Shown one piece after another: positions 39,001-42,000 of a stretch of 64,000 bases of DNA. The stretch comes from Escherichia coli (GTDB lineage: Bacteria; Pseudomonadota; Gammaproteobacteria; Enterobacterales; Enterobacteriaceae). The stretch lies in NCBI RefSeq assembly GCF_044324875.1, contig NZ_CP172185.1; one strand, written 5' to 3'. The first letter of the stretch is position 1. Every line of letters starts with the position of its first letter. Made by a program: the position numbers.

Positions 39001-42000
39001 TAGCGGCATATTTATCATGTAGAGATTATTCGCCGCCCACATCATTGAACACACCACAAAAAGTAGCCGCGTATCTCGCTTTCTATGGATGGAGGGTAAA
39101 ATTTCTACGGGTTGGGTAACGACAGGAATATTTCTTTGTATTGATGGCAAAAACAACCAGACTATCAGCCCGCAAACAATAAATGCGATGGCAGCGGTGA
39201 GATACATCACTTTAAAACTAAATCCCATTGCCAGTTCATAAGCGAGCGGTGGCCCGATAACCCAGGCAAGCGAGATCTGAGCACGTAAAAATGTACTGAA
39301 CATGACCGTCTCGCGACCTGTTCTGTCAGCGTGTTCACGGGCGAGGGCGAACATTTGCGGGTTTGCGGTGGAAGCAAAACTACTCAGAAGTACGCCCGTT
39401 GAGAGGAGAATGAAGTAGTTGCGATTCCACGCAAAAAGCGTGCAGGCCAGCACTCCAAATAAGCAACATAGCAGAATCAGTAATTTACGGTCGCCTTGTT
39501 TATCGGAGTGCCTTGCCAGAAATTGACTGACCAGAATTCCCATAATAGCGCTACCGGTGAAGAAAAAACCTACCATTATAGGACGAGCTTTCAGTTCATC
39601 TGCGAGGAATATACTTAGGGTAGGAGTCTGAAGAGCGCCCGCAATACCCGTCAGAAAGGCGACAAGTAAAAATGCCGCGGCAGTGAGATCAAGTATTTTT
39701 GATGGAGTGGTAGCCGTTTTTTGCATTCTTCTGAATCACCGGGCGACAAAATATAACTGAGTTACAAATAAGTACCAGTCGAATGAGTATTGTATTAAGA
39801 ATTTTTGAGTATCGCTGATACAACCAGAAAACAATGCTAGCGCAATATTATAGGGCCAGCAATTGAGATTATTAGCAAAAGCATGTTAAGAATTAATCAC
39901 CGAATTTATATATTAATTATAGTAAGGCAATGAGCTATTTTTGATAGTAAAAATAAAACAAGTTGATTTGATATGTTAAATGAACAAATTAATCTTGATG
40001 GCAGTCTGATTATTGGTGAAGTTTATAGGTCAGTTTTTTTTGCCAGCGGTTAAAGGAATAGAATCGTCGTATAAAAAAGGTGTTCTGGGGCGTGTGAAAC
40101 AACATCTTCACCTTAATGGCGATACAGTTGGCTGAGAGCCAGCAGGGGGCAAATCACCTGCAAATAAACACGGCACATGCTGGCGCGCATATCGCGGATG
40201 CGTTCGAGGACAGAAGAACCGACAGGCGGATTCTTCAGTCGCTCATCGTCCATCACAAAACTTTTGATCAGGTATTCCTGAAGCCGATTGAATATTGAGC
40301 AGATAGAAAATCTCTGGAATGACAGTATTACAAGGGGTTGGAGAATGTCAGAAGAGGTATTTTGGCGGAAGATCACAGGAGTCGAATATAAGTATTAATG
40401 CATTGATCTTAAATAATTTGTATGTGTTGGATAAATGAGTAACCCCCATAAGAACCCCCAAATGATTTTGCATGAAGGAATGAAGCTAAAATACATGATT
40501 GAATCAATTCTTAGTACTCTATTGTGAAGGTAACATTTCCGGATAGTGTCTGGCTATAATATCATTTAGCCGATCAACCAGTTCTGGTTTCCTGAACGTG
40601 ATGTGCGCGGAGCCTTTCTTAAAGTATCTGATGCTGAACATCTCATCTTCATAGCACTCTTTACCCTGAACAGACCGGATGTGATCATCCAGATGAATGG
40701 TGATGTTTTCCCGGTTGTCGGGGATCGGTTTACCGCTGAACAGGTGCAACATTCTTTCCAGATCGGCGAGTCGGTCAGCCTGTTGCCCGGTGATAAGATG
40801 AAATCCCCACCGGTCCCACCTTACCAGGTTGTTAATGATAATTTTACTGCCAAATTTACAGGGGCAATTAGTTTTGTAATTCCAGCTCAGTCCCCTGAAG
40901 ACGTTGATCACCCCTCGCTCAAACACTTCATCTTTGTTCTGGTGCAGTTGTTTAAATGTGCTCAGAATGTTCGCTTCACTGATTTCCGGAAAATTATCGT
41001 ACTCCAGTGACCGGTACCATGTATCACGGGCCTGCGCATCCATTAATGACAGCATCCCGGAACGTTGCGTCAGGTCACGCCAGATTTCGCGGTCAAGGTT
41101 GCGGGTGATGGCTTTCATTGCTGTTTCAGGTTTCTCCATGAGCCAGCATCCGCAGCGAAAATCCTGTTTCATCGCCCAGTCCCGTGCGCTTTTACCACCA
41201 ATGCTTTTTGTCAGTACTGAGATTTCAGTCAGTTGCCGGATAAGCGTTTCGGTTTGTTGCAGTGCTGCATTCCGTACCGTCACAACGTGTCGGATACTGG
41301 TGGAGCAGATAACGTCCGTATTCCCGGTGACCACTTCCGGATGGGAGATTGTGATGTTTGACATTATCGGTTTCCCTTTTGGTTTATAAACGAAAACGCC
41401 AGCCGTATTCAGGCTGGCGTCAGTGGAATGAAGTCTGGTGAGTAAGGCTCACCGGTTCTGTTGCAGAAGCTGCAGTTGGCGCAGGGTATGGATATCCTCC
41501 CTCGCCTGTTCAATGCAGGGCAGCAGTGCTGCCGAATCCGTTTTATCCTCATCGTTGTCAAAGATAATTCCCGATTCGCAGTCGATATTGTCCTGCAGCC
41601 ACGCAATCAGAATATCCAGTGCTGTTTCCGTGGTTAATGATTTCATGTTGTTCCTGGTTACCAGTTGAAAGTGGGTAAACCCGGCAGGCATTCAGCGCTG
41701 GCATCCAGATGAATGAGACTGACGCCATAACGTCGGGTAAGTGTGACAACCAGACAACGGAACGTTTTTGACAGGCCCAGGCGCTTAAGCCGCAGAACCG
41801 GGTATGACCACGCATCGGTACGTAACAGATAGCCGCTACCTGTGAAATGAATCCATTCTGATTCACCAACGTCACTGGTCTGATGCGACAGCGAGTACAG
41901 CCAGGCGTTATCCTTTTCCGTGATATGTGCGGTACTGCAGCGTATGCCGGCAAGGGTTGCAAACGGTGGTAGTGTGCAGGTTGACTGTTGGTCGGATTCC

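Follow-up and report, generated by a model that had tools for sequence, protein, structure and literature searches.

The window analysed here, a stretch of 64,000 nucleotides of an Escherichia coli chromosome, raised the question of how a short piece of a tRNA gene came to lie near setC, and of what kind of DNA begins beside it. The sequence TGGCGGAAGATCACAGGAGTCGAA, read on the + strand at 40363-40386, has the reverse complement TTCGACTCCTGTGATCTTCCGCCA, which is identical to the 3'-terminal 24 nt of selC (CCA included) in K-12, F404 and BEN2908. This was in agreement with an earlier note on this DNA, which had taken the 24-mer for a reverse-strand copy of the selC 3' end. The 24-mer occurred once in the window, even when three mismatches were allowed, whereas no occurrence was expected from 100 shuffles, and a chance origin was rejected. 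The same note had anticipated that no full tRNA would be found here, and indeed no tRNA gene was detected by ARAGORN or Rfam anywhere in the 64-kb window. Given that ARAGORN recovered tRNA-Sec in the control loci, this absence is meaningful.

Comparison with the empty site of K-12, also proposed in the note, fixed the breakpoint to the base. In K-12, selC and setC lie 636 bp apart, and the spacer between them contains the yicT pseudogene. In the window, setC is separated from the 24-mer by exactly 636 bp, the same spacer length as in K-12. The alignment crossed the spacer and the 24-mer and broke directly after ...GTCGAA, at base 40386, beyond which K-12 continues into the body of selC, whereas the window continues into foreign DNA. 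The same point was reached within the lineage of the window, represented by six loci that encode the same SetC protein as the window and whose core DNA showed 99.0-99.6% identity to it. The selC site was empty in four of the six (L007, L009, L010 and L011), and in each of these the match to the window ended at 40386. For its part, locus L008 (GCA_043944855.1, positions 1-9340) carried at selC a P4-like satellite prophage with Psu, Ogr/Delta, AlpA and primase genes, which ended at the same point and had an exact 21-nt copy of the core together with arm repeats of its own, of the GGTGAACAGTGTGAACA type. Thus, the selC 3' end has served more than one element lineage. Genome L012 matched the window only to 39794, as a deletion had removed its distal junction.

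The spacer itself contains a fragment of a RhuM-family gene at 40113-40376 (- strand; PF13310, E=1.7e-10), the nominal ORF start of which overlaps the 24-mer. This fragment, in a selC-setC spacer that counts as empty, is probably the fossil of an older selC island.

Past base 40386 the window runs into 132 bp at 29.5% GC, as the earlier note had described in pointing to a divergence into AT-rich DNA; this applies to the arm only, given that the island overall has a GC content of 51.5%. The partial selC 3' end, identical at 24 of 24 nt, marks the distal boundary of an island in the form of a direct repeat, and both the repeat and the exact breakpoint are direct observations. We consider it very probable that the 24-mer is the attR core, that is, the distal junction of an AGI-3-type island integrated in the 3' end of selC. 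According to Saile et al. 2018 (PMC6174562), insertions in selC terminate with a direct repeat of 24 bp that belongs to the tRNA gene. The repeat has already been published, as has the island type, and there is nothing new in the main feature; the new points are small, namely an additional host background for AGI-3, an additional IS21-family insertion, and an unusually well kept attR core. The features of the junction and of the island part of the window are collected in Table 1.

Table 1. Features around the selC-derived 24-mer and in the island part of the window.
Feature	Position	Strand	Remarks
setC, first core gene outside the island	38542-39726	-	
Chromosomal flank, selC-setC spacer (636 bp)	39727-40362	-	RhuM-family pseudogene fragment (K-12 yicT)
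Probable attR core	40363-40386	-	identical to the selC 3' end over 24 nt; reads TTCGACTCCTGTGATCTTCCGCCA in tRNA orientation
Island-side arm of the probable attR	40387-40518	-	29.5% GC; paired repeat TTTGGGGGTTCTTATGGGGGT at 40442-40462 (read on -)
AGI-3 'module 5'-type block	40519-50989	-	99.5-99.9% to BEN2908 and F404
IS3-family element	50990-52247	+	truncates agn43; same insertion in BEN2908
GTPase	52554-53465	-	
YfjI/DUF3987	54588-56141	+	
Hypothetical protein	56463-57212	-	
AlpA-family regulator, candidate excision factor	57152-57430	-	PF05930, E=2.4e-8
Complete ISSso4-like IS21-family element (istA, istB)	57814-60452	+	2639 bp; 5-bp target duplication AACGC
Hha-like, inovirus Gp2-family and two zinc-ribbon genes	60453-63300	+	colinear with AGI-3
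IS100 (IS21 family), istB end	63301-64000	-	runs off the window; left boundary approximate

The identity of the island was established directly by alignment with AGI-3 of avian pathogenic E. coli BEN2908 (Chouikha et al. 2006, GenBank AY857617, as relayed in PMC3325963 and PMC4807369). Positions 40351-57813 of the window were colinear with AGI-3 at 99.5% identity, and positions 60453-64000 at 99.8%. In all, about 21 kb of the window matched AGI-3 at 99.4-99.97%, including the shared IS3 insertion in agn43. The two islands have in common their location at selC and the equal placement of the truncated agn43, IrmA, YeeR, CbtA/YeeU, YfjI, AlpA and IS100. They differ in three respects: the window has in addition the ISSso4-like element; its attR core is complete (24 of 24 nt), whereas that of BEN2908 has a 4-nt deletion; and its background has setC, with the eip/air locus nearby.

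The degree of relatedness changed at the 24-mer. The core flank (36185-40362) showed 95.4% identity to F404 and 94.2% to BEN2908, whereas the island blocks were 99.8-99.97% identical to F404 (except for one block at 98.9%, a value due to gaps alone) and 99.4-99.97% identical to BEN2908. Conversely, a same-lineage genome with an empty site, and thus no island, showed 99.2% identity over the flank. An island above 99.4% identity next to a flank at 94-95% directly reveals horizontal transfer, and, on this sequence comparison, the island would have moved between lineages and entered at the selC site.

These same figures bear on the route of acquisition. An island-bearing segment could have been brought in by homologous recombination after transduction or conjugation, in which case the 24-mer would have been inherited from the attR of a donor. 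Islands 99.4-99.97% identical in backgrounds whose flanks differ by 4-6% are compatible with such a route, and so is a detail of the junction. Of the 20 nt that follow the CCA (window 40340-40362, aligned with L006 7297-7320), three differ from K-12, and two of the three match the integrase-side (attL) sequence of the island, a hint that the junction is of mixed origin; either a polymorphism of the lineage or a remnant of the recombination event may account for the differences. However, as far as the data resolve it, the jump in identity falls at the att core, and the flank at 36185-40362 is that of the window's own lineage (99.2% to the same-lineage empty-site genome versus 95.4% to F404), so that no donor flank came along on the setC side. 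We therefore regard homologous recombination as highly improbable; moreover, it would alter only the route of acquisition and not the identity of the 24-mer. Site-specific integration of the island at selC is the reading followed below.

The gene content of the island part of the window (40387-64000) corresponded to an Ag43/toxin-antitoxin/AlpA module only. The block adjoining the arm, which corresponds to 'module 5' of AGI-3 (so named in PMC4807369), contains genes for DUF4942, DUF957, DUF5983, CbtA/YeeU toxin-antitoxin and DUF987 proteins, followed by RadC, antirestriction, DUF932, DUF905, IrmA and YeeR-like genes and by agn43 without its 5' part. No record was found of the variant of the DUF932 protein encoded in the window, whereas the proteins of the right end of the window were identical to those of F404 and BEN2908. 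None of the other selC-island cargo searched for in 40387-64000 was found (LEE type III secretion, haemolysin/fimbriae and aerobactin). The genes related to type III secretion in the window, the eip genes at 28.9-35.9 kb, are located outside the island, in the core DNA beyond the att site.

The mobility genes in the island part of the window were those of AlpA, the IS3-family element, the IS21-like element and IS100, and the IS insertions could be read directly from the sequence. Two IS21-family elements near the window end had been reported in the earlier note, and they proved to be the complete ISSso4-like copy and the IS100 at the edge. The first is missing from BEN2908 and F404, and no complete E. 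coli genome with both IS21-family insertions was found. The ORF at 54588-56141 was also considered as an IS21 istA and rejected, as it corresponds to YfjI/DUF3987. A full-length Rfam match to isrC (51058-51180, +, 147 bits) fell within the 5' part of the IS3-family element, over orfA, and on account of this position it is probably an IS-derived sequence and not an independent sRNA gene.

The window spans the first 23.6 kb of the island. To reach the other end, the whole island was traced in four complete genomes that share this distal junction; it measured 47.1 kb in F404, 48.7 kb in BEN2908, 35.7 kb in AMSCJX03 and 10.2 kb in AH62. All four contained two copies of the core, one in the intact selC and one at the DUF4942 end. 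Exactly two cores per complete island and one in the window speak against a tandem arrangement of two accreted elements, which would have an att copy inside, and this reading was rejected. In all four, a gene for a 394-aa tyrosine integrase was located about 300 bp from the intact selC. The integrase sequence was identical in F404, BEN2908, AMSCJX03 and the same-lineage genome L012, with the domains Arm-DNA-bind_3, Phage_int_M and Phage_integrase and a match to PRK09692 (E=8e-95). Past IS100, BEN2908 and F404 contain pseudogenes, the fos sugar locus, a GH31/MFS/LacI module, a TPR gene, the integrase gene and selC, in such a way that IS100 divides the Ag43/AlpA module from the cargo modules; AMSCJX03 has a BREX remnant in place of the fos (fructo-oligosaccharide) locus.

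The earlier note had supposed that the integrase might be displaced or disrupted. The relatives argue against disruption, since the gene is intact beside selC, and displacement holds only in the sense of separation: the integrase is far from AlpA, the two being set apart by IS100 and about 25 kb of cargo modules. If the layout of BEN2908 plus the additional IS applies to this genome, selC would be found some 27-28 kb past position 64000, and, by analogy with the relatives, both selC and the integrase gene are expected to be still present beyond the window, as the earlier note had anticipated.

A rearrangement beyond the window is possible in view of the IS100, IS21-like and IS3 elements. In its extreme form, a deletion or inversion mediated by IS100 or another IS would have left an orphan attR, without a contiguous integrase gene and selC, and the island would be fixed. 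The IS100 at the window edge and the IS3 and IS21-family elements within the island would provide the means, the size of the island ranges from 10 to 49 kb among relatives, and L012, which belongs to the window's own lineage, kept the integrase end and lost the remainder of the island, a large part of it, by an IS1-associated deletion. Nevertheless, the integrase gene and selC were kept at the far end in four of four complete relatives, IS100 is found at an unchanged position in BEN2908 and F404, where the DNA to its left and right is colinear, and selC, which is required for selenoprotein synthesis, was intact in every examined locus spanning the site. An orphan attR is thus unlikely, and a contiguous island with its integrase beside selC is the preferred reading.

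With such an island, integration could have proceeded as follows. A circular form of the island would have carried an attP composed of a copy of the selC 3' end, an imperfect match of about 25-65 nt to the downstream sequence, and AT-rich arms with TGGGGGT repeats. A P4-family tyrosine integrase from the other end of the island would then have recombined attP with attB, the chromosomal selC 3' end. Recombination would have rebuilt an intact selC beside the integrase gene, forming attL, and would have left the 24-nt copy next to the chromosomal sequence that originally lay downstream, forming attR, as in the window. The island is itself a mosaic, with the Ag43/toxin-antitoxin/AlpA module and IS100 followed, in the relatives, by sugar-utilisation modules, the integrase gene and selC. 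We infer that this integrase made the junction.

The anatomy of both ends agrees with this scheme. In tRNA orientation, attR consists of the arm and TTCGACTCCTGTGATCTTCCGCCA, followed by AAATACCTCTTCTGACATTCTCC..., whereas attL of BEN2908 consists of selC, ending in ...CGCCA, followed by GTTTACCTCTTCTGAACTCTCC...; when the integrase side was compared with the chromosome, imperfect similarity continued for about 25-65 nt past the CCA. The hexamer GGGGGT/ACCCCC occurs 11 times in the 64-kb window, and two of these copies fall in the 132-bp arm, 12 bp apart. A matching pair, TTTGGGGGTACTTTAGGGGGT, was found in the attL arm together with further GGGGGT copies. In the arm variant of AH62, which is otherwise about 85% identical, the TGGGGGT pair is invariant. 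It is plausible that the TGGGGGT pairs are arm-type sites for binding of the integrase through its N-terminal domain. Both repeats, TTTGGGGGTTCTTATGGGGGT in the distal arm and TTTGGGGGTACTTTAGGGGGT in the proximal one, were published by Saile et al. 2018 (PMC6174562).

The same arm repeats have been reported in elements with other cargo. GIselC17584/1 and other selC insertions of LEE-negative STEC share with the window the 24-bp selC repeat, the TTCGACTCCTGTGATC core and the arm repeats, while GIselC17584/1 differs in its cargo (shiA, phosphoethanolamine transferase and others). The arm repeats reported for these insertions (PMC6174562) correspond to window positions 40442-40462 and to the attL arms found in the relatives. 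The core TTCGACTCCTGTGATC and two TTTGGGGGT... repeats are listed in that work and credited to the original description of AGI-3 (PMC6174562).

The module in the window has a gene set (Ag43, YeeR, CbtA/CbeA, RadC, antirestriction, YfjI and AlpA) of the type known from the cryptic CP4-44/CP4-57-type elements of K-12 (flu, yeeR-yeeW, alpA-intA). AlpA activates integrase expression and excision in CP4-57. Unlike these elements, the window has no integrase gene beside AlpA, its module is fused to others through IS100, and the whole AGI-3-type island uses the integrase of the selC side. The direct repeat of PAI I-536 is reportedly 16 bp long. This island, LEE, SHI-2, Tia-PAI, LPA and the P4-like prophage use the same tRNA 3' end as their site, next to a CP4/P4-type integrase, and differ from the window in cargo, the prophage of L008 differing also in its arm repeats. 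More generally, selC is well known as a hot spot of integration for islands that carry CP4/P4-type integrases, such as LEE, PAI I-536, SHI-2, Tia-PAI and LPA (PMC7545054).

The arm is widespread in the species. Of 5426 complete E. coli genomes, 639 contained a single copy of the 159-bp arm sequence, E. coli B and BL21 among them, and the arm adjoined a DUF4942 gene in 38 of 40 genomes among the matches listed; in species-representative genomes, neither the exact junction nor the arm repeat had a match. The core was less constant. It is intact in the window, but F404 and AH62 each lack 1 nt of it and BEN2908 lacks 4 nt, the deletions all falling within the ...GATCTTCCGCCA part (L001 14063-14085, L013 ~1915-1937 and L003 ~14017-14032). 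An intact core plus arm was found in 8 of 60 genomes, taken as an evenly spaced sample of the 298 that matched core plus arm. The deletions might reflect decay after integration or different donor sites.

The complete core (24 of 24 nt), the intact AlpA-family gene and the identity above 99.4% across backgrounds differing by 4-6% allow the tentative, rather doubtful, suggestion that this AGI-3 island was recently transferred and is still excisable, and that the core deletions elsewhere represent repeated immobilisation. With its intact attR core, the strain is a reasonable candidate for testing the excision of an AGI-3-type island. Otherwise, the value of these results lies mostly in correct annotation: the right-hand 23.6 kb of the window are placed in a known mobile island, with the distal boundary fixed to the base, and the same island is now found in a third, divergent E. 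coli background.

The chromosomal part of the window showed further differences from the relatives. Relative to BEN2908, there is a 3.4-kb insertion between ilvN and uhpA (3884-7260) with two ORFs, at 4134-5441 (435 aa) and 5657-7159 (500 aa), annotated as hypothetical proteins in the genomes that match here; neither ORF had a match in Pfam, NCBIfam or PADLOC. A 17.8-kb block (18407-36184), which we take to be the eip/eilA/air locus near selC, is missing from F404 and BEN2908. It encodes an inverse autotransporter of 3418 aa (18611-28867), annotated in relatives as IatC or Air/EaeX, a regulator of the EilA/HilA family (28919-30616), and SipD-like, SipB-like and SicA-like type III translocator/chaperone proteins. 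Among 5426 complete E. coli genomes, the core DNA at 1-40362 had a best match of about 97% over 25 kb, and the core DNA around setC was 99.0-99.6% identical to several NCBI assemblies. Finally, a full-length match to the istR sRNA (1438-1567, +, 147.5 bits) assigns the window to the ilvB-uhp-selC region of the E. coli chromosome.
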